Shown one piece after another: positions 2,249 to 40,492 of a DNA stretch of 64,000 nucleotides. Under the pieces are notes generated by a model that was given only the letters and a program-made list of their open reading frames with translations, ran no database searches and had not been told where the DNA came from. The first letter of the stretch is position 1. Each line of letters starts with the position of its first letter. Location of the stretch: contig CAWFAS010000003.1 in the NCBI GenBank assembly GCA_963813895.1, positions 543,914-607,913 of the forward strand, read 5' to 3'. A program made the position numbers and the translations under genes. The stretch comes from an uncultured Gammaproteobacteria bacterium (GTDB lineage: Bacteria; Pseudomonadota; Gammaproteobacteria; JAURND01).

Positions 2249-3424
2249 TCAATGGGTTACAGCAACATCACCCCTCATTACACAAATCCCTGCGGGACTT
2301 TTGCGGGAGCTGTCATTTTTCATCAATGAATTAGCACCTGAATTAACCTCATAAAATCCTCTGATAACACTCAATGCCGGGCCATTCTGCTGCACACACA
2401 CCTTGTTAACCGCTTCAATCAGCTGAGACAATTCTGCTGCAGAATAGTGCGTCGTAATTCTTCCTGACTTATGACCCAGCAAGTCCTGACGATCCTCAAA
2501 ACTGACTCCCGCCGCACGCAATCTGCGACCAAAAGTGTGCTTGAGATCATGAACTCGCATATGCGGCAACTCTGCCCTAACCCGCGCCTTTCTCCACGCG
2601 GAGCGCAGCATCCTGTCTACTGGTTTACCTTTATAAGTAAATACATACTCAGGGTGTGTGCCACGCACTTCCTCAATCACGGATTTAGCAATACTGTTCA
2701 ATACTACTAAACGGTCATCACGATTCTTAACAACTTTACCGGGTATAAGAAATACTGAGCAATTAGGTATTTCAGGAACAGACACCTCCCACTCCCATTT
2801 AAGCAAACAGACTTCTCTATCACGGCAGCCTGTATTTACTGCAAATAAAGCCATATGCCGGAGGTGAAGCGGTAATTCCTGAAAAAACTGAGTCTGTTCT
2901 TCCCAATTAAGTGGAAAAGGCTTACGCGCATCAGGTTCTGGTAGCAACTTGATCTTAGGCGCAACCTGTAACCAGGTAAGTCCATGTTCATCCAGCCATA
3001 CACCAGCTGCCAAGTTGAGGATATGCCGAACCACTTGCAATCCATGGTTGATGGTACGCATTTTTACACCATCTTTTTTCCTGGCACTAATAAATGACTG
3101 CAAAGTCCCGATATGAACAGCCTCCAGAGTCAAATCACCTATATGCTCGTCCAACACTTTGAGATGACCTGCATCATCTCCAATGCTCGCTTTATGCTGA
3201 TTTTCCAGCAAAAATTTAGTAGCTGCCTCCCGGAATATCCGCTTGGGCCTGACTCCATAAACTTTAGCCTGCCTTATTTGCTCGATCCTTCGCGCAAGGT
3301 ACTGCTCCGCTTCTGCGAGGTCGAAAGTGCCAGTGCTCTCGCAAAGTCTGCGCCCGTGTATTTGTTTGTCGATGTGCCATAAGTCTTTACGTTTGTAGAG
3401 ACCTGGCGTTCTTTTGCGTCCCAT
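2249..3424 (-). CDS. int: P4-type tyrosine integrase (site-specific recombinase) of the genomic island
   Basis: 391 aa. C-terminal catalytic region shows R...HxxR...Y (HDLKHTFGRRL ... LLGHKSGRITTHYSAAEL). Lies 7 bp from the 3' end of tRNA-Thr, the classic island-integration arrangement. Confidence 0.9.
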   Translation of the reverse strand: MGRKRTPGLYKRKDLWHIDKQIHGRRLCESTGTFDLAEAEQYLARRIEQIRQAKVYGVRPKRIFREAATKFLLENQHKASIGDDAGHLKVLDEHIGDLTLEAVHIGTLQSFISARKKDGVKMRTINHGLQVVRHILNLAAGVWLDEHGLTWLQVAPKIKLLPEPDARKPFPLNWEEQTQFFQELPLHLRHMALFAVNTGCRDREVCLLKWEWEVSVPEIPNCSVFLIPGKVVKNRDDRLVVLNSIAKSVIEEVRGTHPEYVFTYKGKPVDRMLRSAWRKARVRAELPHMRVHDLKHTFGRRLRAAGVSFEDRQDLLGHKSGRITTHYSAAELSQLIEAVNKVCVQQNGPALSVIRGFYEVNSGANSLMKNDSSRKSPAGICVMRGDVAVTH

Positions 3425-6172: not shown

Positions 6173-6214
6173 TGTTTATACTACGCTATAAATTTAATAA
6201 CTTAATATTTGGTT

Positions 6215-6529: not shown

Positions 6530-6586
6530 CTAACGCAATACACTCATATAATTTTGCAAAGGCTTTAAGATAATTAATGATAAATT

Positions 6587-7105: not shown

Positions 7106-8539
7106 ATGATTAATAACAAAAAACAGCCGCGCGGCTTATATCTATTATCTTTTTTAGAGATATGGGATAGGTTTGGATATTATGGCATTCAGTCGATATT
7201 GGTTCTTTTTTTGACTAAAACCATGCTAATGGCTGATGATTCTGCTTATGCTCTGTATGGTATTTATACAGCATTGGCGTTCAGCACACCTTTATTAGGC
7301 GGATACATTGCAGACCGTTTTTTGGGGTACCGAAAGGCAGTAGCATATGGATTGACATTGCTAACTATTGGTAATGCCTTATTATTTATCGAAGGAGCGC
7401 ATACTTTTTATATAGGGTTGTCTCTGGTTATCTGTGGCATAGGTCTTTTTAAAGCCAATAATGCCACACTTCTCGGTTCTCTTTATGAAGCGGGCGATAT
7501 CAAAAAAGAAAAAGGTTTTACTTTGTTTTATATGGGAATGAATATAGGAGCTACATTAGGTCCTGTTGTTTTTGGATTAGCTGCACTTTATTTTAACTGG
7601 AAATATGGCTTCATGCTAAGCGCTTTGGCTAGCGGCTGCAGTCTTGTTTTGTTTGTATTCTTTCGTCAGCTATACAATTCCATTAAACCAAAGACATCTA
7701 AAAAATATCCATTACGATTCTGCGTGGCTTTAATTTGTGCTGTCTTGGGTATATCAGGCCTATTCTATTTTCCGGAGGTATTCAAAGATATACTCTGGCT
7801 CATAGGCATTGTTAGTTTAATTTACTTATTTACAGCTGCGGCAAAACACAGCAAATTTGAAAGAAAATGTATACTGCTGCTGGTTATTTTAGATCTGTTT
7901 GCAATTTTCTTTTTCGCTTGCCAGATACAGATAGGCAGCTCATTAACACTTTTTATAGATCGCCTGGTGAATAAACAGGTATTTGCCTGGACTATTCCCA
8001 CGGCAGCGTTCTCTGCCTTACAACCGATATGTGTTATTATTTCTGCTCCCCTACTGGAACCCATTTGGAATTCTTTGGGACGTTTATTACCTATTTATTC
8101 AGTTATATTACGAGTATTCTTAGGACTGGCATTAGGCGGTCTTAGCTTTGTTTTATTTGCATTATCCGCCGATAGTACTGCATGGCACACTACTATCAAT
8201 TATCCATTAATTGGTGTAGTGGCAGGGAATTTTGTTTTAGGCGCTGGAGAATTATGCATAGGTCCCATTATTATGGCAGCTGTATCTCGCTTTGCCCCTG
8301 AAAGATTACGAGGGCAGCTAATGGGATTCTGGTTTTTATCAATAGCTTTTGCCAGCTATCTGGGCAGTATACTTGCCCAATTTGCAGGGACAGCCAACAT
8401 CAAGTTGACCAACAATAGTACCATTTATTTTCACTCATTCTTAAAAACTAGCCTTGTTACGCTGAGCACCGCATTACTTCTGCTTATTTTCCTGGCTGTA
8501 GTGCGCCGTTTTCCGCTTGCTCAGATAACATCGAAATAA
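7106..8539 (+). CDS. POT/PTR2-family proton-dependent di/tripeptide transporter (MFS)
   Basis: POT signature FLEIWDRFGYYGIQSILVLFLT near the N-terminus and about 12-14 hydrophobic segments. A Shine-Dalgarno GGAGAAAGGAAG lies before the ATG at 7106 (ORF track gives 7064). Confidence 0.85.
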   Translation: MINNKKQPRGLYLLSFLEIWDRFGYYGIQSILVLFLTKTMLMADDSAYALYGIYTALAFSTPLLGGYIADRFLGYRKAVAYGLTLLTIGNALLFIEGAHTFYIGLSLVICGIGLFKANNATLLGSLYEAGDIKKEKGFTLFYMGMNIGATLGPVVFGLAALYFNWKYGFMLSALASGCSLVLFVFFRQLYNSIKPKTSKKYPLRFCVALICAVLGISGLFYFPEVFKDILWLIGIVSLIYLFTAAAKHSKFERKCILLLVILDLFAIFFFACQIQIGSSLTLFIDRLVNKQVFAWTIPTAAFSALQPICVIISAPLLEPIWNSLGRLLPIYSVILRVFLGLALGGLSFVLFALSADSTAWHTTINYPLIGVVAGNFVLGAGELCIGPIIMAAVSRFAPERLRGQLMGFWFLSIAFASYLGSILAQFAGTANIKLTNNSTIYFHSFLKTSLVTLSTALLLLIFLAVVRRFPLAQITSK

Positions 8540-10172
8540 AGCGATTTAATTCCGCTTCCCCCTGCTCAAAACCATGATAACTTGCATATTCATGGGTATT
8601 AATATTCAATTTACTCCATTCAGTCAAAAAAAGCGTCATTGCTTTTGGCTCTATATATAAGCGTTTTGCTTTTTGATAAAGACCAGTTAAACGTAAGGCA
8701 TCTAAAAACCACCAAATATCTTGACTAGATGGATAAGCACCAATGGCGTCAGCATTGTTATTGACCACCAAAAAATCAAATCGTATAGCTAAATCCATTA
8801 ATGCTAAGAATGCCTCCAGTGATGAATCATTTTCTTGCAGCCAAGTTTCCATAGCTTGAGTGCTTAATAATTTATGATTAAAACGAAATTTATTAGCATA
8901 ATGTGCGACTTCAATCTGGTCAGGGATCAAGCCAATTTGCGTGGCTTTTAGATCAATTCTATGAAAAAGAGTAGCAATGGTATACATAATATTATATTTA
9001 TCAATATCTGACTGTTTAAATGCGCTACATACGACAGATTTATTTTTTTCAGGAGAATACTGTAAGCCAATGCGTTTTTTGTAGTAGCTATAATAACCTG
9101 ATAATTGCATCAGATAGACCAAGTAATCCATGCTACTTTTTTCATTATCGCTATAATTTAAACAATTAAGTCGTGTGATAAATTGCTTTAGATCTTTATC
9201 AAAACAATCATTTTCCATTTGCCAGCTTTGCTGTGTGACAATATCTCCCAAACCAAATATACCCTCTGATTGATTTCTTTCTCTTTGAGCAATATTGTAG
9301 GTTATCGTCAATAGGTAGGCCAAACGTTGTGTAAGTAGGTAATTTTTTCCAAATAATCGCGCAATCAAAGCGACTTTTTCTTGAATAGGCAACCAATCCT
9401 TATAAACGATAAAAGGCTGGCACTGCATTGATCGTTGTAGAGTACGAAAATAAATAGTGCGCTCAAGATGGGGTTTATTTTGAGATGGAACAACAGCAGT
9501 ATTTGAATTTCTGATTAACTCCAATAATTCGGCTGCATCCAAAGCTTTTTGATCTATGTAACCTCCCTGAGCTAGCCAGGTTATTAAGCGTTTAATCTCT
9601 TCTTCCTTGAATTTATCAATGTTGCTTAAACAAATTTCTTTCAATGTACGTCGTTGATAAAATGTTTGTTTGGTTAGGTAAATTAAGGTATCTACTGTTT
9701 CCTGATTGACAATAGACTGAGCAAGTGCCGACTCCAGTGTCGCTCGTATATTTACCATAGGGTCTGTAATAACTTGGTAACCTGTAGCTTCAGTACCATG
9801 TAATATAGCCACTTCATCATCATCCGTAAGCTTGCCTGACGCATAATCATAAAAAACTTTTCCAACTCCCCGCATACCATAGCGCTCTAATTCCGCAGCT
9901 CTTAATGCACCCATGCTGGAAGCACCGAATACTTTAATACCTTGTTCCAACGCATATAATATTTCTTTATGCCAGACCGCTGCTGTTTTTTCAAACACGC
10001 CATCAATAATTAAGATGACCTCCGGTTTTAATCGCATGACACGCAAAATATCGCCACATTTTACTGGGGGCAAATAAAACGCTTCAGGCAATATCTCTTG
10101 AGCTTTAGTTAATGGTAACGATGGGCCTAGGAAGACGAATATATTGCAGCTAGGAGGATTTTTAGTATTCAC
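8484..10172 (-). CDS. TfuA-like domain protein with ~330-aa C-terminal extension of unknown function
   Basis: N-terminal ~230 aa match the TfuA core (IFVFLGPSLP...CGDILR...LIIDGVFEKTAAVWHKEILYALEQGIKVFGASSMGALRAAEL..YGM.GVG). It is immediately downstream of, and overlaps by 4 nt, a YcaO gene. Confidence 0.75.
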   Translation of the reverse strand: MNTKNPPSCNIFVFLGPSLPLTKAQEILPEAFYLPPVKCGDILRVMRLKPEVILIIDGVFEKTAAVWHKEILYALEQGIKVFGASSMGALRAAELERYGMRGVGKVFYDYASGKLTDDDEVAILHGTEATGYQVITDPMVNIRATLESALAQSIVNQETVDTLIYLTKQTFYQRRTLKEICLSNIDKFKEEEIKRLITWLAQGGYIDQKALDAAELLELIRNSNTAVVPSQNKPHLERTIYFRTLQRSMQCQPFIVYKDWLPIQEKVALIARLFGKNYLLTQRLAYLLTITYNIAQRERNQSEGIFGLGDIVTQQSWQMENDCFDKDLKQFITRLNCLNYSDNEKSSMDYLVYLMQLSGYYSYYKKRIGLQYSPEKNKSVVCSAFKQSDIDKYNIMYTIATLFHRIDLKATQIGLIPDQIEVAHYANKFRFNHKLLSTQAMETWLQENDSSLEAFLALMDLAIRFDFLVVNNNADAIGAYPSSQDIWWFLDALRLTGLYQKAKRLYIEPKAMTLFLTEWSKLNINTHEYASYHGFEQGEAELNRFISMLSEQAENGALQPGK

Positions 10173-11341
10173 ATTCTGGCCCCATTGAACTTTAAACCTG
10201 GAACCAATACTTGCACTACGGGGATGCCAATCTCCTTTTTAGTATGATTTACTAGCAACACATGTCGATAGTCCTTCCTATAGAGTAAGACGATTATTTG
10301 TTTTATATTTTCAGCAAAAGAAGATTGATATTCTGGCTGCACCCCTTTTGCATAGTCATGCATGCCATCTTTGAGCCAGTCTTCCTCCAATAGTTGATTA
10401 AGCATTCTTTGCCGCTGATAGTATTCAGGGAATACATCATCCCGGTTGCCGCTGATTAATGTTAATCTTGCCTGTGCTGCTTCGGTTAATGCCCGAGACA
10501 AGGCAACTTCTTTTGATAAATGAGCCCCAGTTCCTGTGAATAATCCCAAACTTCTAAATAAATTGATGTCGTAGATTGCACAATGAAATGCTGGAATTCC
10601 CAAGGGCGAAGCAATGTCCCAAATTTTTACCCGTAACCCCGCCAGATGCAAGTGCGTCAATAACTGAATGTTACTGTCCTGAATACTCGCCTGCGATAGT
10701 AGTTTTTTATTCTTGATTTCCTGATCCAGTTGTTGCCATTGATAAAGCGAATCACGCTCTATCAATTCATATAATGCATGACAGATCGCTTCTTCATGGG
10801 TATTGCCTGCCGCCAAACCGTTCGTACTGACAGATAAAAAACTATATTCAGGGTGAGGTTGGGTAGAGTCTAAACAGGTAAGAATATGAGGAATATAAAA
10901 ATTAGTATTGGTAGGTAAATCTAAAGCAGACACCCATCCCAACTCCAGAGTATCTAATTTTTTCTGAGTAAATTGAGTCCTATTAAAAAAATCAGGATTT
11001 ATCAGCTTGTGAATATTGCAAAGTGCAGCATAGGAGCCAGCAAGCGCAGGGCCGAGTGCATTTTCCATATGATAGGCTTCTAGTGCCTCCATAATTGCAG
11101 AAATTTCTGCTAACTGTTGGGACAAGCCTTTGCCTTGTGATACTGAAAGATGCTTCGCATTGGGGCGTATGCAGGTAGCAACAGCGATACCGACGGAATC
11201 GAGTCCTGTAATATTGGCTACTCGAGTAATACCCACATTGGGCAAAATTGGCTTTAATCGTTGTAGAGTCTTATCAGTGAAATCGGCACGAATTGTACCT
11301 TGCAGAGGATAATAATTGTCCAAGCACACCACATTAACCAC
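10169..11341 (-). CDS. YcaO-domain protein (ATP-dependent amide-backbone activating enzyme family)
   Basis: Hallmark YcaO motifs GITRVANITGLD..GI.V......RP ... SQGKG and SVSTNGLAAGNTHEEAICHALYELIERD. Confidence 0.85.
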   Translation of the reverse strand: MVNVVCLDNYYPLQGTIRADFTDKTLQRLKPILPNVGITRVANITGLDSVGIAVATCIRPNAKHLSVSQGKGLSQQLAEISAIMEALEAYHMENALGPALAGSYAALCNIHKLINPDFFNRTQFTQKKLDTLELGWVSALDLPTNTNFYIPHILTCLDSTQPHPEYSFLSVSTNGLAAGNTHEEAICHALYELIERDSLYQWQQLDQEIKNKKLLSQASIQDSNIQLLTHLHLAGLRVKIWDIASPLGIPAFHCAIYDINLFRSLGLFTGTGAHLSKEVALSRALTEAAQARLTLISGNRDDVFPEYYQRQRMLNQLLEEDWLKDGMHDYAKGVQPEYQSSFAENIKQIIVLLYRKDYRHVLLVNHTKKEIGIPVVQVLVPGLKFNGARM

Positions 11342-11972: not shown

Positions 11973-12004
11973 AACCCTGAGAGTAAATTAATCCTTTGAT
12001 CTTA

Positions 12005-13336
12005 TTATACATCAGATTTTCTTGAGATTCGAATACAACCTCTTAAAAATGGACTCGATGCGCAGAATGACTTCTCAGGATATTTCTTTAATTCAGAGAC
12101 TAGCATGGAATCACCCATTGTGATTTCAGAAGAATTTAATATCAGTTCTCTGCTATCCATTTCAGAATGAAAATAAGAATAATCAATATTTTTTGCCCAT
12201 TTATAAATAGGAGTATTTACCAATTTTAACTTGTCCTCCAATAAATAAGTAGATATTCCATTCATTACATGTTTGATTTCTCGTAAGTCTTCGAGCTTAC
12301 TAGTGATTTTTTTTGATTTTGGTGAAAATACTACCAAGGTCGGTACTGCTAGAGAGTAATAGCAGGGTCTTTGGGGATCTTCTGCAGAAAAGTATCCAGG
12401 ATGTAACATCGTGGGAGAGTATTTTAAGCTATAGATATTATTAAAAACAGTTTGTAGTGCTCTGATAGGACCTGCACTCTCGTCGTGGGCCACTATAAAA
12501 GCTGGGTAAGTACCAGTTCCAATAGAATATAAATGCTTTACAGTGTCAGTAAGATATGGATTAGGTTTCAGATTTTTGGCTTCTAACGCGCAGGAAAAAG
12601 CAAAATCAAGCACGACCTGATTACGTAAATATGCGGTTTCGTGCCAAGCAGTTTCCATAAGATAGGATCGAAGAAGTCGCCATTTGGGGTCTTTCTGATT
12701 TTCTAACCATTTGCCTGAAAAAAATAAAACTTCTACTGACCACGGTTCAGGGAAAGTAGCGCATTGTGCCAATTCCTTAAAGACTTCCCATTCATCAAGA
12801 AAATCTTTGGGCACAGAAGAAAATAGGTTGAATTCACGTTTTAGCTTTTTGTAATAGGTGACATCCGAAATTTTAGGTAGCATTATAAGTGAACGTGCGC
12901 CAGCGGTAATGCTCCAGATATGGCCGAGATGCGCCGACTGCATAATTTCTAATACAGTCCAAAGTGCAAAGATTTTGCCAGTTCGCATTAAACTGAATGG
13001 CACTACACGCCTGCCTTCCAACAAAAATAGTTCAATTGAATTATTAAGTACTACTCCCATTGGCATAGTCTGCGCATAGGTTAATGATTCTCTTATTTCA
13101 GGGTCAAGGTCAGGATTATCAATGGATAATAATTGCTGATTATCTGTGGGGAGATGAAGCACACCCTTATCTAAAATGGTAGCCCCAAAGGGATAGCGAG
13201 CCTTAATTAAAAGGAAATCATTTCCCGGATCAATTTTATCTATTTCGTTAGCAAGCTGGGGATTAGCCTTAACTACATCGTCTCTTGCCTGCTTCCAGGT
13301 CAATTTTTCAATTGCAGGTCTATTGTCTTTCCCCAT
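12005..13336 (-). CDS. hypothetical protein (443 aa), first gene of the YcaO/TfuA operon
   Basis: Long uninterrupted ORF, co-directional and tightly spaced with the downstream genes. No family recognised by eye. Confidence 0.6.
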   Translation of the reverse strand: MGKDNRPAIEKLTWKQARDDVVKANPQLANEIDKIDPGNDFLLIKARYPFGATILDKGVLHLPTDNQQLLSIDNPDLDPEIRESLTYAQTMPMGVVLNNSIELFLLEGRRVVPFSLMRTGKIFALWTVLEIMQSAHLGHIWSITAGARSLIMLPKISDVTYYKKLKREFNLFSSVPKDFLDEWEVFKELAQCATFPEPWSVEVLFFSGKWLENQKDPKWRLLRSYLMETAWHETAYLRNQVVLDFAFSCALEAKNLKPNPYLTDTVKHLYSIGTGTYPAFIVAHDESAGPIRALQTVFNNIYSLKYSPTMLHPGYFSAEDPQRPCYYSLAVPTLVVFSPKSKKITSKLEDLREIKHVMNGISTYLLEDKLKLVNTPIYKWAKNIDYSYFHSEMDSRELILNSSEITMGDSMLVSELKKYPEKSFCASSPFLRGCIRISRKSDV

Positions 13337-16359: not shown

Positions 16360-18913
16360 ATAGGGTAGGAAGCGAGATTCCCCGAAGGGTAATCCGTCAA
16401 CCCCCCTCCGAACCGGACTTGAACCTTTCAGCTCATCCGGCTCTCCACTTGCTTTTCTTTAGCTCTTCTTAAGTCAGGAAGTTTTCCAGCATGTAACAAA
16501 TCATGACATGAGACACAGAGAACTAATGTTTTCCTTTGTCTTCTTGCCATTATTATTTGCCACAATTTCTTTCCTTCTTTTAAGTCACTCAACTTTCGGA
16601 TGTGATGCACTTCGAATGGTCCCGTTTGTCCCTTACAGTATTCGCACTGACGTGCATTTAATCGTTGAACAAGCTCCGTTCGACTTAAAGTAAATTGCCA
16701 GGTATTAGGCATATCATCGATATGTTTATATGTGGCTTCTTTACGCTTCACATCCTTCAATTTGAATATCTTAAAAATGTGTATATTCGTTTTGCTGCGA
16801 ACAGTTAGCATTAGCCCTTGCGGAGTTTGGAGCCTTTTGGTGATTTTGCCTATCGTAGTTTTGTGCTTGCCTGCTAATGTTTTAAGCAAGCTTGTTTGCC
16901 ATACCCACGCTAGTTTTCCCAAGCTCCAAAAGTTCTGGGCTAACCCATAATAATTAGCTAACCCACGCATTTCCGCGTTATAGGTTTTAATAATCTCTGC
17001 GTCGCTGAGATTGAACAACTCCGCTCGATGAACTGTTTTGAGAGTTGCATAATTTCCGTATTTTTTGTTTTTACAGAATTGACTCAGCTTTTCTTGGGGT
17101 ATATATAATTGCATACGTTCTGCCATAGTTCTTTCGCGCGTATGGCATTTTCCCCTGACAGTCCTAACTGTCTTATTGCCAGAGTAAATAGCTATATTAT
17201 AACCCAAGAATCGTGCACCTTTCGACCCACTTACTATATGAGATTTTTCATGAGCTATTTCGAGCTGTAGATTGATCTCGATAAATTTCTGTATTTTATC
17301 GCGCACAGTAATTGCATCATATTTGGAACCGATAATGCCAATTACAAAATCATCTGCATATCGACAGTAGCGCAATCTCTTATAATTCGGGTCTAACGGT
17401 TCAAGAGTTTTATTTGTTTTCCGTTGTATATCCAGGATTTTTATTTGTTGCTTGAGAGCATGAATCTGCTCAGCAGTGTTTTGCTGTTGATTCAAACTGT
17501 CAATTTTCTTCCGTAATCCATAGATAGAAGCACTGATACGGTCATACTCCGCCTTACTTGCTCTCCTCTTACCTCGGTTAAACTCCGTTTTCAATGTTTC
17601 AACGAATATATCGAGTTCGTGAAGATAAATATTTGCTAGAAGCGGTGAAACAATATTTCCTTGCGGTGTTCCGCTAAATGTTTTGTGGAATTTCCAGTCT
17701 TCGACATATCCGGCTGTTAACATCAGTTCAATAAGGTGAATGAATTTATTATCTTCAATCTTTTCCTTAAGGAGCTTGATGAGGATAGCATGATGGATAT
17801 TATCGAAGTAACCTCTGATATCCATGTCAATGATCCACTTTAGACCGTGCCATCGATTTTTAATTTCATTTAATGCGGTATGACAAGATTTTCCTGGCCT
17901 AAATCCATGGGCATTTTTATGAAAAATTGGCTCATAGATCTTTTCCAGTATCATCCTGACTACTTCAGAAATTAATTTATCGTCTCCAGACGGAATACCT
18001 AATGGACGCTGCTTCCCATTCGCTTTGGGAATATACACTCTTTTTACTGGGTTGAAACGATAATGGTCTTCTTTGATTTCTTTAATCAATCTTTGGACTC
18101 GTTCCATAGAGAATCTGTCCAATGATTTACCATCTGTTCCAGGTGTCGTTGCTCCCTTATTGGCATATATATTTATATATGCCTGCAGCCACAACATCGG
18201 ATTCTCTAAAAGTCTAAAAAGACCATTAATACGTTTTCCTTTCTTAGATAGCTCTCCAAGTGCATCTAATCTCTTAATCGTAGTATCGGTTAGCATCAGC
18301 ACAACCTCTCTTAAGATTTTAGTTGCATAAGCAAGCTGCTTTCCTTCCCCCCAGACAGAGAGTTTTTCATTGATATTACTATCAACTTATGACTGTGTCG
18401 GTATCGCTTACTTTTAGGCGATCAGCCATTTCCATTACAGAAATGACATCGGGTAATACGAAAGCTCTGTTGCCTTATTGGTCGTAGTCTGAATAGACCA
18501 ACTTAGGCAATCCCATGTTTACGACAAACCAAAGTTACAACGTGGTTAGGCCTCCTTTTCGTCTCGACGATCCCTTTTATGAGGGCATGTCTAAACAACT
18601 GGACAATGTAACACGCCCGATAAGTTACCTTGTGTTTAGAACAGATGTTACAGTTATCTTTCATCAGTGCCTGTCAAAAAGCCATGGAGACTGGGATTCA
18701 GGTAGTATAACTTTGACCATACACGTTTTATCCTTACCCCTTCAGCTATAGATAACTTTCAGCATTGGGGCATTTTCCCAACATGCTACACTCCCTCTTC
18801 CCTTTCGGGATTCAAGCCTGTTACCAAGCAGAGATAAGTTGGGTGGATATAAGATTTTCCAGTAATCTTAGCGACTGTTAGTCGCGCTCCTGTTTGACGC
18901 CGACACGGCGCAC
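16360..18913 (-). mobile_element. group II intron (apparently intact), minus strand
   Basis: RT/maturase/endonuclease ORF inside. Domain V (GAGCCGGATGAGCTGAAAGGTTCAAGTCCGGTTC) read as the reverse complement of 16408-16443, overlapping the ORF stop. A GTGCGCC 5' end lies at plus 18913. The 3' end is placed approximately (+/-20 nt) after a domain VI-like hairpin. Confidence 0.75.
16428..18302 (-). CDS. group II intron-encoded protein: reverse transcriptase + maturase (X) + HNH endonuclease
   Basis: RT blocks (RPLGIPSGDDKLISEV, GFRPGKSCHTAL, DIRGYFDNIHH, GTPQGNIVSPLLANIYL, YADDFVIG). C-terminal Cys/His HNH region (CEYCKG...HHIRKLSDL...CVSCHDLLH). Confidence 0.9.
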   Translation of the reverse strand: MLMLTDTTIKRLDALGELSKKGKRINGLFRLLENPMLWLQAYINIYANKGATTPGTDGKSLDRFSMERVQRLIKEIKEDHYRFNPVKRVYIPKANGKQRPLGIPSGDDKLISEVVRMILEKIYEPIFHKNAHGFRPGKSCHTALNEIKNRWHGLKWIIDMDIRGYFDNIHHAILIKLLKEKIEDNKFIHLIELMLTAGYVEDWKFHKTFSGTPQGNIVSPLLANIYLHELDIFVETLKTEFNRGKRRASKAEYDRISASIYGLRKKIDSLNQQQNTAEQIHALKQQIKILDIQRKTNKTLEPLDPNYKRLRYCRYADDFVIGIIGSKYDAITVRDKIQKFIEINLQLEIAHEKSHIVSGSKGARFLGYNIAIYSGNKTVRTVRGKCHTRERTMAERMQLYIPQEKLSQFCKNKKYGNYATLKTVHRAELFNLSDAEIIKTYNAEMRGLANYYGLAQNFWSLGKLAWVWQTSLLKTLAGKHKTTIGKITKRLQTPQGLMLTVRSKTNIHIFKIFKLKDVKRKEATYKHIDDMPNTWQFTLSRTELVQRLNARQCEYCKGQTGPFEVHHIRKLSDLKEGKKLWQIIMARRQRKTLVLCVSCHDLLHAGKLPDLRRAKEKQVESRMS

Positions 18914-24538: not shown

Positions 24539-24770
24539 ATTTGTTTGCTCCGTAGGTGAAATGAGTAAAAATCCTTAGGAAATCAGGGCAAGTTTTGTGG
24601 GGAATAGTCGCTCTTAGTGTCTTTGTAAGTACCGAGTAAGCCAGTTGCATTACTGCAACTGGCTCCTCTAAGAACGCAGCTTGCGACTTTCATCGCACTA
24701 CGCTCAAGCATTTTTTAAGACTGATTTTGTCAGTCCGACCATCTCATCCAGAGGCTCATTAAAACTCCAG

Positions 24771-25517
24771 TTAGCGTTGACCCGTATTTGATCGGACTAG
24801 TTTGCTACGCTTATCGCGGGCTTCAAAATAGTCTTTAAACTTCGGGTTGAATAGACATGCCTCACCGCGAATCTTAATGTAGCGTTCGATCTTCACGCTT
24901 TTAGCTGAGAACAAATCAAGGTGTTTAATTTCTCCTTTCTTGTTCCTGATTTTAGTGGAAAAGATCCAGTTTCTTGTCGACGATATGCGGAAATATTTAG
25001 CACACCATTTTCGCAAACTCCCTTTTGAATGCTTCCGCTTTATCCAGCGCATAATAGCCTGAAAGATGCATCTATCTACATACGAGAAAATTCTTTTAGA
25101 AACCACATGACGATAGTAGTTTGTCCAGCCACGTAAGCGTGCATTCAGCATCGGGATAAACAATTCTCTCGGTGTGTTGCTATGATATTTGATAAATTCT
25201 CGGATACCCTTTAAGAATAAGAGTACGTTTTTCTTGGCTGGTTTTATTAATAATTTCCCGCCATATTTTCGAACGTTAAATCCGAGAAAATCAAAGCCCT
25301 CATCCACGTGCGTGATTTTAGTTTTCTCCGGAGAGAGTTCTAATCCACGTTCTCTGAGAAAGGATTCAATAGCTGGTTTGATTTTATACTCTAGTACTTC
25401 ATATGTGCTTCCGGTCACAATAAAATCGTCAGCATATCGCACAAAATTAATTTTGTCTGGTTGTTTAGTTATTCCTTTTACCAAAGCTTCCATACTATCC
25501 AAAACTATATTCGCCAT
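24771..25517 (-). pseudogene. C-terminal fragment (RT blocks 5-7 + maturase X) of the split group II intron RT
   Basis: Begins ..GGIISPTMANIVLD. Contains YADDFIVTG and the maturase region (RLRGWTNYYR). No endonuclease domain. Confidence 0.8.
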
Positions 25518-25679
25518 GGTTGGGGAAATTATTCCACCTTATGCGAAGAAAGTAATTATGCAAAGTAGTTCTTAAAGTTTCCCATTAATTCAACAACTTC
25601 ATTTCAATTTACTTTGCATAATAGCCTAGAGCGATAATAGAGTCTAGCACTCTAATTATCATTTCTAGGAGATATTTTT

Positions 25680-26915
25680 ATGCAAAATAAACCATTGATT
25701 GATCTGCTCCGTGATTTGGAGCAAGAAATGCTTCGTCTAGGTTACACTGAAGGTTCCATGAAGTTTTATCGTAGACGCTGGCAAATGTTATTAGGATTTG
25801 CACAAGAACGCGATGAACCCTTTTTTTCTGAAAGTTTAGGAATGGATTTTCTCGAAAAGTATTTTCATATTCTTGAAAAAGATTCTAACCGTAAACTTTC
25901 CCAATCAGAAGTTCAAGAACTCCGCATCATACGGGTAATTGGAGACTTTCAACTCCATCATGCCATTTTACGTCGATATTTTAAGCACAAAGAAATTTTA
26001 ACTGAACCCCATTTTTTAACTATCAGTCATCGATTTAAATCCTATTGCGTAGATAATGGCTATTCTGAAGTAACCATTGATCATTATGTTAAACAATCTG
26101 CAAGATTTATGGATTACCTCGCTTCACAGCAAATTATCAGCTGTCAGAAAATTAATCTCGCATTCATTCATAATTATATTAAAACTTTATCTGGTTACGC
26201 CTATAAAACCGTGGAACAAAATATTTGTTCCTTGCGCGCATTTTTTCGTTTCCTTTTAAAAACAGAGGAGGTTGCGATTGATTTTGCAGCAAAAACACCA
26301 ATGGTTCAAGCCAGAAAGCAAACTCGTATTCCATCTGTATGGACAATCGATGAATTGAAAAAATTGATCGCCGCTATTGATAGAGGAAGTCCAAAGGGTA
26401 AACGAGATTATGCCATCATTTTGTTAGCCTGTTGTTTGGGGATGCGATGCCTGGATATTAAACATTTAAAAATGGAAAATTTTAAATGGGAAGAGAAAAA
26501 ATTAATTTTCACTCAATCTAAGACGAAAACCCCTACTGTTCTTCCGTTAACTCCAGAAGTAGGCTGGGCGGTAATTGATTACCTCAAGCACGGTAGACCT
26601 AAAATAGACAGCCCCTTTATTTTTGTCAAGCACATGGCTCCTTTTGGTCCCTTTGCAGAAGACGATCATTTAGCTCAGATCATTAAACATTATATGGAGC
26701 TGGCGCATCTACCTACTTTGAAAAAAAGAAGAGGGATGCATTCCCTTCGACATACGATGGCCAGTCATCTTTTGGAAAAGGACACACCGCTTGCTGTTAT
26801 TTCTGACATTCTCGGTCATATGGATACTGACTCCACGGCAGTTTATTTAAAAGTTGATACGAAGAAACTAAGAGAATGTGCAATGACTTTTGGGGAGGGT
26901 ATTCATCATGAATAA
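25680..26915 (+). CDS. tyrosine recombinase 1 of the RIT trio (RitA position)
   Basis: 411 aa. N-terminal SAM-like domain, catalytic R (MRCLDIKHL region) and HSLRHTMASHLL...LGHMDTDSTAVYLK (H-x-x-R ... Y). Confidence 0.85.
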   Translation: MQNKPLIDLLRDLEQEMLRLGYTEGSMKFYRRRWQMLLGFAQERDEPFFSESLGMDFLEKYFHILEKDSNRKLSQSEVQELRIIRVIGDFQLHHAILRRYFKHKEILTEPHFLTISHRFKSYCVDNGYSEVTIDHYVKQSARFMDYLASQQIISCQKINLAFIHNYIKTLSGYAYKTVEQNICSLRAFFRFLLKTEEVAIDFAAKTPMVQARKQTRIPSVWTIDELKKLIAAIDRGSPKGKRDYAIILLACCLGMRCLDIKHLKMENFKWEEKKLIFTQSKTKTPTVLPLTPEVGWAVIDYLKHGRPKIDSPFIFVKHMAPFGPFAEDDHLAQIIKHYMELAHLPTLKKRRGMHSLRHTMASHLLEKDTPLAVISDILGHMDTDSTAVYLKVDTKKLRECAMTFGEGIHHE

Positions 26916-27894
26916 TTTTAATTATACCGGCCCTTTCAAGGATCATATTCAAAATCATTTAAAATTAAAACAGGCTATTGGATACAAGTATGATACTGAT
27001 GCCGGGCATTTAAAACGTTTCGATCAATTTACATTAGATAAATATCCTCAAGCGACTATTCTGACTAAGGAAATGGTACTTGATTGGTGCAGCAAAAAAA
27101 CTTATGAGGCACAAGCCAACCAAAGCTCGCGTGCTTCTGTCATTCGGCAATTTGGAAAATATCTCGATTCTATCGGAATGAACGCTTATGTCTTAGCCAA
27201 AGGTTATTATCCTAGCGCAAAACAATATATACCGTATATTTATACTATTGAAGAATTGGAAAAATTTTTCTCTGAAACCGACCGATGTCAGTATTGTTGC
27301 GAATGTCCCTATCGGCACCTGATTATGCCTGTGATTTTTCGCATGATCTATCTATGCGGATTGAGATTATCCGAAGCCAGACTGCTTAAAGTTGCAGATG
27401 TTGATCTAAAAGACGGTGTCCTCAGCATCCATCACGCTAAAAAAGATAATTGCCGATTGGTGCCTATGTCCGCCTTTCTAACGGATCTATGTCGAAATTT
27501 CTCAAAAAAAGTGCACCTAAACTCAGCCGAAAGTGATTATTATTTTCCAGCATTGCATGGTAAACCCATGACAAAAACTAATCTTTATCATAACTTCCGC
27601 AGATTTTTATGGCGTGCCAAAATTTCCCATGGCGGCAGAGGACATGGCCCACGCATTTATGACTTTCGACACGTTTATGCCGTGCATTGCTTAAAAAAAT
27701 GGGCTGAAGAAGAAAAAGATCTCACTGTTTACCTGCCTCTGTTAAAAACCTATATGGGACACGACTCATTCAACGAAACTGCCTATTACCTCCGCTTAAC
27801 TGCCGATGTATTCCCTCACATCACGTTAAAAATAGAGACTCAGTATCCAAACATCATCCCCATGCTTGGAGGTGAAACCAATGAAACCCACTGA
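26890..27894 (+). CDS. tyrosine recombinase 2 of the RIT trio (RitB position)
   Basis: 334 aa. GLRLSEARLLKVADVDL..., YDFRHVYAVHCL, MGHDSFNETAYYLR. Overlaps the upstream gene by 26 nt. Confidence 0.85.
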   Translation: MGRVFIMNNFNYTGPFKDHIQNHLKLKQAIGYKYDTDAGHLKRFDQFTLDKYPQATILTKEMVLDWCSKKTYEAQANQSSRASVIRQFGKYLDSIGMNAYVLAKGYYPSAKQYIPYIYTIEELEKFFSETDRCQYCCECPYRHLIMPVIFRMIYLCGLRLSEARLLKVADVDLKDGVLSIHHAKKDNCRLVPMSAFLTDLCRNFSKKVHLNSAESDYYFPALHGKPMTKTNLYHNFRRFLWRAKISHGGRGHGPRIYDFRHVYAVHCLKKWAEEEKDLTVYLPLLKTYMGHDSFNETAYYLRLTADVFPHITLKIETQYPNIIPMLGGETNETH

Positions 27895-28894
27895 TTTTGC
27901 AAAATACCTAACTGAATTTCTTTCCATTTACTTGCCAACGCAGAAAAATGTCAGCAAAAATACTATTCACTCTTATCGAGATACATTTAAATTATTGATT
28001 AATTACTGTCAAGAGATTAAAAAAATTTCGGCAGAAAAAATCACTATTAGTATTCTCTCAAGCCAATGGTTGATTGATTTTTTACAGTGGCTGGAAACAG
28101 ACAGAAAATGTAGCATATCCACTCGAAATCAAAGACTAGCGGCTATTCATTCTTTTTTTAGATATTTACAGGCAGAAGAGCCTGCTGGTATATTTAATTT
28201 TCAAAAGATCACAGCTATCCCCATTAAAAAAGCACAGAAAAAAATTGTGGAATATCTGACTCCAGAAGCTATGAAATTACTTTTGGAGCAGCCCGACAAA
28301 CATACGTTGAGGGGTAGACGTGATTTAACGTTAATGGCGGTCTTATATGATTCTGGAGCACGCGTGCAGGAAGTATGTGATCTGAAGATCGGTGATGTTA
28401 GTTTACAAGAACCCGTTGTTATTACGTTAACTGGCAAAGGAAATAAAATCAGACGGGTACCTATCATGAAAAATACAGCTTCTTTATTAAAAAATTATTT
28501 GTCGGAAAATAACTTAGATAAAACTTGGAAAAATGAAAATCCACTATTCACAAATAACCAACATAGGAAACTGACAAAAGAAGGCGTGTCTTACATAATT
28601 GCAAAGTATGTTGAATCTGCCAGAAAAAAATCAACCATAGTACCTTTAAAAGTACATGCCCATATGCTTCGCCATTCAAAGGCGATGCATTTATTACAAG
28701 CGGGTGTTAATCTCATCTATATCCGTGATTTTCTTGGTCACGTTGACCTGAAGACCACAGAGATATATGCCAGGGCAGATACTGAAACCAAAAGAAAAGC
28801 TGTTGAAAATCTTTATCCTGATTTAATTGAAAGTAATCTGCCTGATTGGAGCAAAGATCAAGCATTGCTTTCGTGGCTGTCTGAGTTAAAATAA
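27866..28894 (+). CDS. tyrosine recombinase 3 of the RIT trio (RitC position)
   Basis: 342 aa. GARVQEVCDLKIGDV, HAHMLRHSKAMHLL, LGHVDLKTTEIYAR. Overlaps the upstream gene by 29 nt. Confidence 0.85.
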   Translation: MEVKPMKPTDFAKYLTEFLSIYLPTQKNVSKNTIHSYRDTFKLLINYCQEIKKISAEKITISILSSQWLIDFLQWLETDRKCSISTRNQRLAAIHSFFRYLQAEEPAGIFNFQKITAIPIKKAQKKIVEYLTPEAMKLLLEQPDKHTLRGRRDLTLMAVLYDSGARVQEVCDLKIGDVSLQEPVVITLTGKGNKIRRVPIMKNTASLLKNYLSENNLDKTWKNENPLFTNNQHRKLTKEGVSYIIAKYVESARKKSTIVPLKVHAHMLRHSKAMHLLQAGVNLIYIRDFLGHVDLKTTEIYARADTETKRKAVENLYPDLIESNLPDWSKDQALLSWLSELK

Positions 28895-28976
28895 ACACCA
28901 TGAGAAATTATGCAAAGTAAATAAAAGTAAAATCATTATTTTTTAATAACCTAAGTAATTTACTTTGCATAATGTC

Positions 28977-29762
28977 CTACTTCGCATAAGGCGGGTTATG
29001 CAAAGCTTTGCATAATCCACCCTGTGGCGTCCCTTCTTCTGTTGGATAAAATGCTTGTTTCTCGATGTAGCCAGATTTCAACCATTTTCGGAGAATTTTT
29101 CTATCTATAAGGATATTATTTTCTAACCATAAATGGTCTATTTTATCGAAGCACGATTTTATATCCCCTTCGAGAATCCACTGGGCAGATGTTCCTTTTG
29201 CAAGGGCATTGAAGCATTGCTCAATGGCGTCAGCACAAGATCTCTTAACCCTAAAACCATATGAGTTTTTATCCGCTTGAGTTTCTGCTACAGGTTCTAA
29301 AGCTAGCAAATGCAATGCTTGCATCGCTCTATCAGCCATCGTAGGGATTCCCAACGGGCGAGTCTGAGTGCTATCATTTTTCTTGGGGATATAAACACGC
29401 CGCAGCGGTTGAGGTTGGTAGCCTCTTTGCTTCAACGCACGTGCTGCTTGCATCTTTTCTTGTGAAGTCTTCCAGATGATACCGTCAACTCCAGCTGTTT
29501 TACTGCCAGAGTTTTCGGCGACTCGTTTTGTCGCTAGTAATTTAGCACAATGCGAGTGAGTTAGGAGATGTTGCAGAGCTTTCGCTTTGCCGCGTTTCCC
29601 TTCTCTAATGGCCTTCGCGATACGCACTTGCAGCCGGTAAACATGCTTGATAACCCTTGACCAATTTATAAAGCCCCAGGTCTTCAAACCTGCCGGAAGG
29701 GCACCCACTGACGATATTGCTGTCGCGGTCATTTGCGTTCTCCCATTATGCCGGTTCTCCAA
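28977..29762 (-). pseudogene. N-terminal fragment (RT blocks 0-4) of the split group II intron RT
   Basis: RPLGIPTMADRAMQ, GFRVKRSCADAI, ILEGDIKSCFDKIDH, ...GTPQGG, then runs into the RIT terminal repeat (LCKALHNPPYAK-stop). Confidence 0.8.
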
Positions 29763-30259
29763 GTTCTCTCACGATAAAACACCAGCTGGATGTGGGCCCG
29801 CTTGCGCGTTGAGTGGTTCAAACCCATATCTCTGTCGTTACAACAGAGCGTTCGCTTTTTCCAGCATCTCAAGCCTGCACTGTTGTAGGCTAGCTTTACA
29901 GTTAGCTTTCCTAAGGAAATCATTAGGGGCAGCACAGGGTTTCCACGTTCCGCTCAAATGAGTATGTCAGGTTAGGTGCCTACTATAGAACGGGAGATTC
30001 GGTGGCCACGAAAGTATATGGAAGAGAAAACTTTCCTATCTCCAGTGCTGATTTTAGCCAAGGCGTGTCAACCACTTTCGCCTTTTTTAAAGTTAACGTT
30101 CTTTGCGTAGATTCACATTACATTCACCATACTGACTTTCTAGCACTCACCCAACTTTGTGGTTGTCAGGAGGGCACGCTTCTTGCGATTTGTGCCCCGT
30201 GCACTAAACTTTGCACTTTGTTACGTTGTCAGGGTCGCTCTTTATTCAGACCCGTAGAA

Positions 30260-30502
30260 TCACCCGGTGGCACGGGTGGTCCCTCGCTCTTTTGAGTGGG
30301 ACAACTTTTTTTGAGCGACTTCGTGTCGCAACTTCCAGTCTTTATCCATCTTTAACAGATATTTAGCAGCCTCCACCAGGAAAAATTCTTTGTCTGCAAC
30401 CCCGGCCCATTGTATGTACTGTTCTATCTCAGCATTCAGGGATTTAGGCAGCTTGGTTCTGACGGCCACTGTTTCCAGATTAACCGGTTTAATTAACGGC
30501 AT
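30260..30502 (-). CDS. small hypothetical protein (possible ribbon-helix-helix type); 3' end overlaps the presumed intron 5' region
   Basis: 80-aa ORF MPLIKPVNLETVAVRTKLPKSLNAEIEQY... No firm homology. Confidence 0.3.
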   Translation of the reverse strand: MPLIKPVNLETVAVRTKLPKSLNAEIEQYIQWAGVADKEFFLVEAAKYLLKMDKDWKLRHEVAQKKLSHSKERGTTRATG

Positions 30503-38110: not shown

Positions 38111-38422
38111 TTAGAAGCAGTCAAGCGCTCTGCTGTAGCAGGACACGTTTTTAGTTATGCACCTGCCCCCGGGCCGGGCATTATTTGGATTGATCTTAAT
38201 AGCCTGCTCATAGGCCCTTAAAGCGACTTCCAACTTATCTTGTTGGTATAAGGTCAAACCCAAGTCCAGGACGATGCTTATAGTATCGCCTTTGACTTTG
38301 CCCAACTGTTGACCAGTGGGCAATTTGCCTTTGAGTAACTGAGTGGATAGCTCACTCTCGACAGTACCAAATAAACCCAATATTTGTGCGCCTTTGCCCA
38401 GTGTTTGATCTACGAGCAGCAA
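38111..38422 (-). pseudogene. TPR-like gene fragment
   Basis: Only ~25 aa (ALRAYEQAIKINPNNA) look TPR-like. Abuts the truncated copy of the 4.28-kb repeat. Confidence 0.25.
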
Positions 38423-38483: not shown

Positions 38484-38916
38484 ATATACAATATCTGCAA
38501 ATTGTCCTTGAAAATTTACTGAATTAACCAATTTAGAATTTTTAAGTTTTCATTAATACAGGAGACTCATATAGTAACTGGCAAGAAACCCGCCTTCTTA
38601 GCAGCCAAAGGATTAAAAAATAAAAAAACGTGCCAAACTCCGAGAATAGTAGATGGAAGCGATTTAGCCCAACTTCAAGGAAGAAAACAACAAAAGCAAA
38701 AAATAGAAAGTAATTGAATTTGGAATAATTTGAGGCCAGTCAATTAGGCCACTCCAAAACGAAAAAAATACTATTTAGTCCGCTATGTGGCATAAATTTA
38801 CAGGCACAAGCTAAGAGAGAATTGCACCTCTATCGGGGAGTTCGATTGCGCTGTTTTCGCTGTAGCTGCGGGTAATCATAGATATCATTATTAACCTTCA
38901 TGGAGTAATTCAGTTA

Positions 38917-40122
38917 ATGAAGAATTTTGCGAATAATACTCGAGGCGATAATTCAATCCCTCAACTTAGAAAATCACGGGATGAAATTAATAAATTTCTT
39001 TCGGATCAGATCAGAGAAGGCAAAGAAAATTTTTTGGTGGTTGAAATTGGCAGCTCAGCCCAATTGGATGAAACACAAAGAGAATACAAAAAATGGAAAT
39101 CATCCAACAAAAACTATTTAACTATAGCATTTAGTAATGATCAATTTTCGAACCAATATGATAATACCTATGTTTCAATGGACATTAGAACTTCTAGAAC
39201 TCCTTTTTCAATGGAGGTAAAATATTTTAAAGATGAAGTACAGTCTAATATTGATAAGCTAATAGAAATTTTAGATACACTACCTCTATGTGAAACGACT
39301 CAATTAGAAAGCTCTGAAATACCTGTGAGTAACCAAGATTTCGACAATGTTGTTCTGGGTTATGTTAATAGTCAATCTCCTTCTCCCGTTAGATTCAATA
39401 TGGCAAAAATTGAAAAATTGACGGGGTTAAAAAATAATACAGAAAATGAAGGCGATCTTATACGATTTTTGCAAACTGTAGATTTTCTTGTGGATGAAGG
39501 TTATTTAAGATGTTCTTCTAAGCACATACGTTATGGCATGAACTATGATCTAATCCTGCAACTCGATCAGCTCGTTACTATTACAGAGAAGGGTAAAGAT
39601 AAAATAAAATCTAATCTTACACAACAGAATATCAAAATTCATGACAATAATAAAAAAGTCTTTATAGTGCACGGGCATGATGATACGGCCAAGCTTCAAG
39701 TGGCTTATTTTCTAAAAACAATTGGATTAGAGCCGATTATTTTACACGAACAACCAAACAAGGGTCGTACAATTATTGAAAAGTTGAATGATCATGCGCA
39801 GGAAGTCGCTTTTGCTGTAATATTACTCACGCCTGATGATATTGGTTGTGCTAAAAAAGAGTTTGATGGTGATGTTCAAAAATTGAAGCCACGCGCCAGG
39901 CAAAACGTGGTTTTGGAGCTTGGTCTTTTTATAGGTCTCTTAGGAGGAAAGAACGTTTGTGCTTTAATGAAAGGCGCTATTGAACAGCCTAGCGATTATA
40001 ATGGAGTACTTTATATCAATATGGATGAATCCGATGGATGGCAGATACGACTTATTAAAGAATTAAACGCGGCTAATTTAGATATTGACCATACAGCTCT
40101 TGTTACTTCCGGTAAAAATTGA
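38917..40122 (+). CDS. TIR-like (Cap12/Pycsar-TIR-type, COG4271) C-terminal domain protein with unknown ~230-aa N-terminal domain
   Basis: C-terminal KKVFIVHGHDDTAKLQVAYFLKTIGLEPIILHEQPNKGRTIIEKLNDHAQEVAFAVILLTPDD matches the TIR-like nucleotide-binding-domain signature. Confidence 0.7.
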   Translation: MKNFANNTRGDNSIPQLRKSRDEINKFLSDQIREGKENFLVVEIGSSAQLDETQREYKKWKSSNKNYLTIAFSNDQFSNQYDNTYVSMDIRTSRTPFSMEVKYFKDEVQSNIDKLIEILDTLPLCETTQLESSEIPVSNQDFDNVVLGYVNSQSPSPVRFNMAKIEKLTGLKNNTENEGDLIRFLQTVDFLVDEGYLRCSSKHIRYGMNYDLILQLDQLVTITEKGKDKIKSNLTQQNIKIHDNNKKVFIVHGHDDTAKLQVAYFLKTIGLEPIILHEQPNKGRTIIEKLNDHAQEVAFAVILLTPDDIGCAKKEFDGDVQKLKPRARQNVVLELGLFIGLLGGKNVCALMKGAIEQPSDYNGVLYINMDESDGWQIRLIKELNAANLDIDHTALVTSGKN

Positions 40123-40139: not shown

Positions 40140-40492
40140 CCTGCTTTTTGGTTCTATAGGATCTAAGGCGGATTAAAGAACAACAGACCAAAACACTGCC
40201 TGGTAATGATGCAGTCCATTAAATCACCGTGGATGCAATGATTTAACAGCGATTTGGCGTGCCAGGCGCGTTCTTTATCAATTTCAACCCCATAGGCAGG
40301 GTGCGGGTTTGGACTAAAGGATGTTTGCATTCAGCCAATGCTAAGCCTTTTCCGGCAGTGGGATCAAAGATGGCCAGTTGATCACCACTTTCAGCGGGAA
40401 CTAAGGCATTTAAGATGCGCCCAGTATCTCGCTGTCAGTGGGAAAATAACCGAACTTGATAAAGTTTCGTGCCAGTCGTTGAAATAACATAG
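40140..40492 (-). pseudogene. 5' remnant of an N6-adenine DNA methyltransferase gene (frameshifted and truncated)
   Basis: Translation from the ATG at 40492 gives MLFQRLARNFIKFGYFPTDSEILGAS-stop. The next frame continues LNALVPAESGDQLAIFDPTAGKGLALAE, which is MTase motif X/I style (YFTP...; xLDPxxGxG). The ORF dies at the edge of the inserted TIR gene. Confidence 0.4.

Follow-up and report, generated by a model that had tools for sequence, protein, structure and literature searches.

TIR-like domains of the Pfam family PF10137 (CAP12-PCTIR_TIR) have been characterised only in Cap12 and PycTIR, the TIR effectors of the cyclic-oligonucleotide-based antiphage signalling system (CBASS) and the pyrimidine cyclase system for antiphage resistance (Pycsar), and the literature describes both as NAD+-depleting effectors. 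In the Cap12 protein SfSTING the NAD+ pocket is lined by R78 and N80, with E84 as the catalytic residue, while D110 reaches over from the dimer mate and completes the active site upon filament formation (PMC9402430). A different TIR-like family is used by Swarozyc (KpSwz), a DUF4062 single-gene TIR-like NAD+ glycohydrolase (NADase) in which an auxiliary domain of helix-turn-helix (HTH)/winged type binds the portal of the phage and turns on NAD+ depletion (bioRxiv 10.64898/2026.05.01.722283). Closest to the gene reported here is PDC-S35, one of 145 single-gene 'phage defence candidates' (PDCs) catalogued by Payne et al. 2024 (bioRxiv 10.1101/2024.01.29.577857). A systematic survey of bacterial TIRs, published recently, explicitly left out proteins in which the TIR stands alone, and in the literature that we searched there was no experimental characterisation of, and no published mechanism for, stand-alone TIR-like proteins of the PDC-S35 type. 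Here we describe such a protein, of 401 amino acids (aa), encoded in a 64-kb stretch of DNA from an uncultured gammaproteobacterium (hereafter the window).

The TIR-like gene is real, intact and far beyond chance, and 7.6 kb around it recurs at 100% identity on an independently assembled Logan contig. Judged by its sequence, it is a variant of the catalogued PDC-S35 family that carries a unique winged-helix insertion and is otherwise ordinary, rather than an orphaned Cap12 or PycTIR. With moderate confidence we propose that it encodes a self-contained, single-gene abortive-infection NADase of the PDC-S35 family, in which the non-TIR modules would act as infection sensor and oligomerisation driver. 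The coordinates of the gene and its parts are given in Table 1.

Table 1. Positions within the window of the TIR-like gene, its predicted parts and the neighbouring KAP gene.
Feature	Position	Strand	Basis
Stand-alone TIR-like PDC-S35 family protein, complete open reading frame	38917..40122	+	ATG start, 401 aa, TGA stop
Shine-Dalgarno-like GGAG	38902..38905	+	11 nt 5' of ATG, direct sequence reading
Family-typical N-terminal helical domain, aa 15-124	38959..39288	+	Alignment with 70 homologues
Insertion relative to all other members of the family, aa ~125-232	39289..39612	+	Gap-only in 8/8 (A1) and 70/70 (A2) aligned homologues
MarR/PadR-like winged-helix domain plus connecting helix, aa 139-244	39331..39648	+	AlphaFold2 model
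TIR-like domain, PF10137 type, aa 247-395	39655..40101	+	Pfam, Foldseek, HMMER to 9lmq and 7un8
Predicted active-site segment R328-Q-N330-V-V-L-E334	39898..39918	+	Aligned with RDNVVFE of SfSTING and 9lmq
D360, equivalent of SfSTING D110	39994..39996	+	PSD360 aligned with PTD/PSD of 7un8 and 9lmq
KAP-family P-loop NTPase, 743 aa	35210-37441	-	PF07693 E 6e-44; PADLOC PifA E 5e-66

Family assignment and the TIR-like domain

A preliminary description of this gene, made from its sequence, had placed a TIR-like domain of Cap12/PycTIR type at the C-terminus. This is confirmed by Pfam, in which PF10137 matches aa 247-370 with an E-value (E) of 4.2e-40 (136.9 bits against a cutoff of 24.7 bits), and all the signature motifs then quoted are found between aa 247 and 336 (KVFIVHGHD at aa 247-255, ILHEQPN at aa 275-281, TPDD at aa 305-308 and RARQNVVLELG at aa 326-336). 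All five PADLOC models of PDC-S35 match the protein, with E from 3e-72 to 7e-49. The match to the best model falls into two stretches, consistent with a split by the insert, and its best stretch places aa 215-395 on profile positions 87-262 of 264. In comparison, the PADLOC models of the CBASS/Pycsar TIR effectors Cap12 and PycTIR match with E of 1e-8 to 1e-12, and that of PycTIR covers the TIR core alone (aa 266-373, E 1.5e-8). The NCBIfam Cap12 equivalogs NF050171 and NF050172 score 31.6 and 23 bits against a cutoff of 450 bits, again with the TIR core alone aligned. Hence the epithet 'Cap12-like' in the preliminary description applies at the level of the domain only.

Among 5.8 billion clusters searched, 7085 relatives of the protein were found, 120 of which were listed; among these 120 only the identical protein covers the full length of the query, the other 119 being 244-327 aa long and covering 32-52% of it. 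Over the TIR half, identity to family members is 45-63%. The median length over 166 sampled open reading frames (ORFs) of the family is 283 aa, against 401 aa here. With PDC-S35 the protein shares the helical N-terminal domain (aa 15-124), the PF10137 domain (aa 247-395) and all the invariant residues, as well as its stand-alone status and a distribution over mobile elements and defence islands. It differs in the winged helix, which is absent from the 70 aligned homologues and matched by the insert's hidden Markov model (HMM) in none of the 165 other sampled ORFs, from genomes and viral contigs.

Structure prediction bore out the TIR fold. AlphaFold2 models the C-terminal domain with a predicted local distance difference test score (pLDDT) of ~77-96, and its best Foldseek matches in the PDB are the TIR domains of the TIR-STING proteins 9lmq and 7un8 (E about 1e-5). 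The alignment to the PDB chain spans chain residues 41-127 only. R328, N330, E334 and D360, which align with R78, N80, E84 and D110 of SfSTING, do not vary over 71 family sequences. The catalytic Glu, whose loss had been raised as an argument against the assignment, is thus retained. By correspondence with SfSTING, E334 would be the catalytic residue, with R328 and N330 in contact with NAD+.

With Cap12 (SfSTING 7un8; 9lmq) the protein therefore shares the Pfam TIR family, the best structural match, and the R/N/E residues together with the trans-acting D; filament- or oligomer-dependent activation of an NADase is probably shared as well. However, it has neither a STING domain nor a CD-NTase operon, and the TIR domain is C-terminal here, whereas it is N-terminal in Cap12. 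Likeness to PycTIR extends to the Pfam TIR family and the weak PADLOC match given above; in contrast to PycTIR, we recognise no region that binds cyclic nucleoside monophosphates (cNMPs), no adjacent pyrimidine cyclase (PycC) and no neighbour of Guanylate_cyc type. Unlike Thoeris ThsB, the protein has no match to PF08937 and is not accompanied by an adjacent ThsA or other effector.

The domain could have another substrate. It might be an N-glycosidase like MilB, DNPH1 or nucleoside deoxyribosyltransferases, with a nucleotide or nucleic acid as substrate, or a producer of a signal for an effector encoded elsewhere, as in Thoeris. In the sources the family bears no annotation beyond 'nucleotide-binding protein' or 'predicted nucleotide-binding protein', and the TIR fold of SfSTING has itself been compared with the hmCMP (hydroxymethyl-CMP) glycosylhydrolase MilB, with which it has a catalytic Glu on helix alpha-C in common (PMC9402430). 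Moreover, one of the 140 neighbours of family genes surveyed below is a STALD (Sir2- and TIR-associating SLOG) protein. Yet the residues of the SfSTING NAD+ pocket are conserved in the 401-aa protein, the characterised PF10137 domains deplete NAD+ as described, and no ThsA-like or other effector partner recurs among the neighbours. We consider a substrate other than NAD+, or a signalling product, unlikely.

The modules N-terminal to the TIR-like domain

What the preliminary description treated as a single unassigned N-terminus of 230 aa consists of two modules, a helical domain typical of the family (aa ~15-124) and the inserted winged helix (aa ~125-245). The helical domain comprises helices at aa 21-40, 47-71, 76-82 and 97-124, and is homologous to the N-terminal helical domain of PDC-S35 proteins of ~270-330 aa. 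Over the 70 aligned homologues W60 is invariant, and F72 and L115 are conserved in at least 90%. In the AlphaFold2 model pLDDT is ~73-98 per 10-residue block between aa 11 and 130, and mostly at least 95. An HMM of the domain matches 40 of the 166 sampled family ORFs, with the copy in the window (L001) probably among the 40. No Pfam family matches the domain, and a profile search of PDB sequences gave a best E of 0.37, which is at chance level, and no relative of a solved structure. A common origin of this domain and the insert was also considered and rejected (hhalign probability 0.1%).

The winged helix, of ~105-120 aa, lies exactly in the linker between the helical domain and the TIR-like domain. 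Modelled by AlphaFold2 with seven free-standing relatives as alignment (pLDDT 85, predicted template modelling score 0.77), the insert shows three helices (aa 139-152, 162-169 and 175-193), then a beta wing with strands within aa 197-222 and then a C-terminal helix (aa 224-244). In this model it has the topology expected of a winged-helix fold.

These relatives were found only by an exhaustive search. A word-indexed search with the insert alone missed even the parent protein, and therefore aa 121-246 were compared by HMMER with 1.84 billion cluster representatives. This recovered the parent protein and seven small free-standing proteins (E 1e-13 to 1e-5), of which six are 142-154 aa long and the seventh 84 aa; two weak matches, both in long proteins, are probably spurious. 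No further members emerged when the insert alignment was used in a profile search. The free-standing winged helices of ~150 aa thus form a tiny family with about eight members in 1.84 billion representatives, and the fused form is a singleton: the protein is the sole carrier among these representatives, and its 90% cluster has one member. The insert was likewise not found in a scan of JGI metagenome contigs or in a scan of IMG/VR. Neither the insert nor six scanned relatives match any Pfam family, MarR and PadR included, at E up to 1, and a profile search of PDB sequences with the insert gave matches at chance level only. BLAST alignments extend into the insert region at a few loci (L002, L123/L124 and an enterobacterial plasmid protein; query positions 111, 135 or 155 to 387 or 391). 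These extensions are not homology, given that the insert HMM matches none of those loci and that hhalign gives 1.4% for the plasmid protein.

The rarity of the fused form raises the question of whether the insertion is a non-functional accident, that is, a recent in-frame gene capture which left a protein that is an inactivated relic, or else an ordinary PDC-S35 protein with an inert insert. Decayed fragments do surround the gene: a TPR-like piece at 38111..38422 on the minus strand looks like a relic, and at 40163-40330, also on the minus strand and convergent with the TIR-like gene, lies a 55-aa ORF ending '...YGVEIDKERAWHA...LLFFNPP*', probably the truncated remnant of an N6-adenine DNA methyltransferase, with motif I and the NPP[YF] motif IV recognised by eye. 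Against an accident, the frame is intact over both junctions and the family-invariant residues are kept on both sides of an insert that sits exactly between domains. Residues common to all the free-standing relatives (L, P, F, LTG, F, T, D, L, E and Y) are likewise retained in the insert, which is only ~30-35% identical to these relatives, so that its capture is not recent. Hence we regard an inert insertion as improbable.

What the winged helix might do is suggested by the company its relatives keep. Their neighbourhoods are of mobile, toxin or abortive-infection (Abi) type, with Fic, Zeta toxin, IS66, integrase, DUF1016/YhcG, AbiJ_NTD4, N6_N4 methylase and VbhA. One Logan contig (SRR5581858, L085, positions 1341-4170) carries two winged-helix paralogues that are 49% identical, each directly downstream of a different gene for a protein of ~260-300 aa, one AbiJ_NTD4 and the other Glyoxalase_8; this arrangement suggests two-gene cassettes in which a variable effector is paired with a conserved winged-helix partner. 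Other free-standing relatives lie on L082, L083 and L084. The best functional analogy for the insert appears to be Swarozyc, with which the protein shares its logic, in that one gene would combine a TIR-like NADase with helical elements and with an auxiliary domain of HTH/winged-helix type. The analogy is one of function, concerns the insert only and does not draw on any specific similarity between the winged helices; the TIR-like families differ, as Pfam gives the protein no DUF4062 match at E up to 1. We tentatively raise the possibility, at low confidence, that the inserted winged helix is a portable specificity module of abortive-infection systems, free-standing downstream of unrelated effector-like genes on L085 and grafted here into the linker of a TIR-like protein. 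It would bind a phage structural protein, much as the Swarozyc domain binds the portal, and so retarget a generic PDC-S35 effector.

The fold also invites a quite different interpretation. The insert is modelled with a fold of MarR/PadR type, and winged helices of this type are overwhelmingly those of DNA-binding regulators; the gene might be an addiction or exclusion toxin of the integrative and conjugative element (ICE) that carries it, and not a phage sensor. The winged helix would then be a DNA-binding autorepressor, such as many toxin-antitoxin and PadR/MarR modules have, and the role of the TIR-like domain would be to kill cells in which the element is lost or mis-regulated, or to target incoming competing elements. 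Consistent with this are the position of the gene at the edge of the ICE transfer module, the abundance of the family on conjugative plasmids (576 of 1153 plasmid records) and the Fic, Zeta-toxin and VbhA-type genes beside the free-standing relatives. However, the likeness to MarR/PadR regulators is confined to the modelled fold: identity is 8-18%, Pfam gives no match, and the insert is embedded inside an effector protein whereas those regulators are free dimeric repressors. Moreover, the winged-helix core is mildly acidic (net charge -2, pI 5.3) and its third helix, GDLIRFLQTVDFLVDEGYL, is hydrophobic and acidic, neither basic nor polar, which is a weak argument against a classical DNA-reading helix. 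No antitoxin-like partner ORF is present upstream or downstream, and the other family members examined, all of them without the winged helix, share the same distribution over mobile elements. An addiction or exclusion toxin is therefore doubtful.

Genomic setting of the gene and its family

The TIR-like gene has the single-gene organisation of PDC-S35 with no obligatory partner; on neither side is there a co-oriented adjacent ORF of at least 25 aa within ~200 nt. Promoter-like sites around it occur only at background frequency, no terminator-like site was detected directly 3' of its stop codon, and an Rfam scan found no RNA element near it. Upstream and divergent, 1.5 kb away, lies the KAP NTPase gene, which by sequence is probably a second abortive-infection gene. 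Downstream on the minus strand is the transfer module of an ICE (DUF2958, SSB, AcaB, a TraI_2-type protein, a TrwB/TraD-type coupling protein, TraG_N, TraU, TraC, DUF3438 and DUF4400), for which PLSDB holds no near match. The guanine-plus-cytosine content is 0.31-0.38 in the TIR-like gene and 0.30 in the KAP gene, compared with 0.43 in the ICE backbone, as is typical of acquired cargo. The TIR-like gene is thus ICE-borne cargo beside a PifA-like Abi gene, at the edge of the ICE transfer module.

The window holds 65 non-overlapping ORFs of at least 80 aa. Pfam was run on 41 of them, which include most of those of at least 200 aa and the neighbours within ~8 kb; the ~24 left out are mostly small or belong to the ICE backbone. 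No SMODS/CD-NTase or nucleotide-cyclase family was found in these 41, in agreement with the earlier view of a stand-alone gene without a cyclase partner. A PADLOC scan of all 65 ORFs was dominated, among the best 25 of 117 families, by three group II intron reverse transcriptases.

Family members elsewhere are widespread. They occur in at least 594 GTDB species-representative genomes of many phyla, one archaeon included, on 1153 PLSDB plasmids (Klebsiella 617, Escherichia 367), and on at least 207 IMG/VR viral contigs. Around 71 family genes in other genomes we surveyed 140 immediate neighbours. No neighbour is common to all 71 loci. Recurrent Pfam families among the 140 genes are N6_N4 methylase (8), AAA_15 (6), AAA_21 (6), ResIII (3), PIN (2) and M78 (2), and the PADLOC names of the recurrent neighbours are type III/II methyltransferases (8), AriA (AriA-like ATPases, 6), PD-T4-4_A (4) and PDC-M47A. 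No cyclase was present among the Pfam families seen at least twice in these flanking genes. Attached to one conserved TIR domain, the N-terminal regions of 165 sampled members (without the window copy) group into 23 clusters by BLAST, which is a sensor-plus-effector pattern.

These data bear on whether the protein is instead an orphan CBASS- or Pycsar-like effector, with an N-terminal region that binds the cyclic-nucleotide product of a cyclase from some other part of the genome, a sensor role that the preliminary description had offered. The TIR domain does belong to the Pfam family of Cap12 and PycTIR, the PADLOC models of these effectors do match weakly, and our inspection covered 64 kb of the genome. 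Nevertheless, aa 1-246 gave no match to a STING, SAVED, CARF, cNMP-binding or other known nucleotide-sensor domain, and the score against the Cap12 equivalog is far below its cutoff. A cyclase is lacking from the scanned ORFs of the window and from the recurrent neighbours alike, and 23 N-terminal clusters are unlike a conserved ligand pocket. The suggestion of a sensor for a cyclic nucleotide made elsewhere thus finds no support, and we deem an orphan effector very improbable.

Other arrangements were seen within the family. In a subfamily of 298-302 aa with another N-terminal domain, the TIR-like gene is always preceded by a co-oriented ORF of 94-95 aa that overlaps its start by 1-8 bp (L030, L032, L034, L036, L038, L039, L047 and L048, all from GTDB; similar in L053, L071, L073 and L074). 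The overlap is 4 bp in six of the eight loci, the small ORF has no Pfam match among the recurrent families listed, and the two genes likely form an operon. Several of the top matches on Enterobacteriaceae plasmids cover the same span of the query, aa 155-387. In the one such record examined, the Klebsiella pneumoniae IncI-gamma/K1 plasmid NZ_CP071822.1 (L166, positions 4551-6844), a 367-aa 'nucleotide-binding protein' of the family is immediately followed by a gene with a DUF4238 domain, and a class 1 integron and IS26 adjoin the pair. The two genes may constitute a defence cassette of resistance plasmids.

Further mobile features lie elsewhere in the window. At 2167-2242 a tRNA-Thr(TGT) is followed immediately by a tyrosine integrase (2249..3424, minus strand), probably the attachment site of a genomic island that possibly extends over much of the window. 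A group II intron at 24631-30279 (minus strand; Rfam D1-D4 at 30143-30279 and domain V/VI at 24631-24707) has a reverse-transcriptase ORF that is split into an N-terminal part (28977..29762) and a C-terminal part (24771..25517). It is interrupted at 25680-28894, on the plus strand, by three tandem overlapping tyrosine-recombinase genes (25680..26915, 26890..27894 and 27866..28894), which resemble a 'recombinase in trio' element that has entered the intron. A second group II intron at 16360-18302 (minus strand; Rfam Intron_gpII 16360-16445) is apparently intact and encodes a 624-aa reverse transcriptase-maturase-HNH ORF (16428..18302). Lastly, at 8484-13336 on the minus strand, a YcaO cyclodehydratase (10169..11341) adjoins a 562-aa TfuA-domain protein (8484..10172), with a 443-aa ORF without a Pfam match nearby (12005..13336); this region may be a thioamide locus or one of the type that makes ribosomally synthesised and post-translationally modified peptides.

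A proposed mechanism and its implications

We return to the reading of the gene as a self-contained abortive-infection NADase. Here, the N-terminal helical domain and, in this copy only, the inserted winged helix would detect a cue of infection and bring about oligomerisation. Phage proteins or nucleoproteins are likelier cues than a diffusible nucleotide. The PF10137 TIR-like domain would be the effector, an NAD+ glycohydrolase that is inactive until subunits pack, whereupon each R328/N330/E334 site would be completed in trans by D360 of the neighbouring subunit, as in bacterial TIR-STING. NAD+ would then collapse, and the infected cell would stop growing or die before phage release. The data show the domain architecture and folds, the conserved catalytic residues, the uniqueness of the insertion, the lack of a cyclase partner among the ORFs scanned and a setting of mobile and defence genes; the NADase chemistry, its activation by oligomerisation, the anti-phage role and any ligand of the winged helix are inferred from them.

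Several points weigh against this reading. The NADase activity is extrapolated from Cap12 and PycTIR, which are ~20% identical over the TIR core, and the HMMER alignment to 7un8 is weak by itself (E 0.073). Equating D360 with D110 assumes an 8-residue numbering offset in 7un8_A, which we took from the register of R78, N80 and E84. The winged helix comes from a model built on only eight sequences, and in the full-length AlphaFold2 model the insert has a pLDDT of 36-65, hence no inter-domain geometry can be read from it. The neighbourhood survey used crude ORF calling and two flanking genes only. As for the family itself, its source paper lists the 145 PDCs as untested candidates (bioRxiv 10.1101/2024.01.29.577857), and the name 'PDC-S35' was not found in the literature searched.

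Nothing in the locus contradicts current models of TIR-based abortive infection. For the window, the annotation becomes that of ICE-borne defence cargo next to a PifA-like Abi gene, and not of an orphan CBASS or Pycsar component. For the family, a protein type for which we found no characterisation in the literature searched proves to be common, in hundreds of species genomes and on more than a thousand plasmids, many of them conjugative plasmids of Klebsiella and E. coli, as well as in hundreds of prophage contigs. A discrete foreign domain between the N-terminal domain and the effector offers a natural handle on where infection sensing resides. Moreover, if the inserted winged helix is indeed a portable specificity module, the locus would illustrate how sensors can be swapped in nature through the insertion of a domain.

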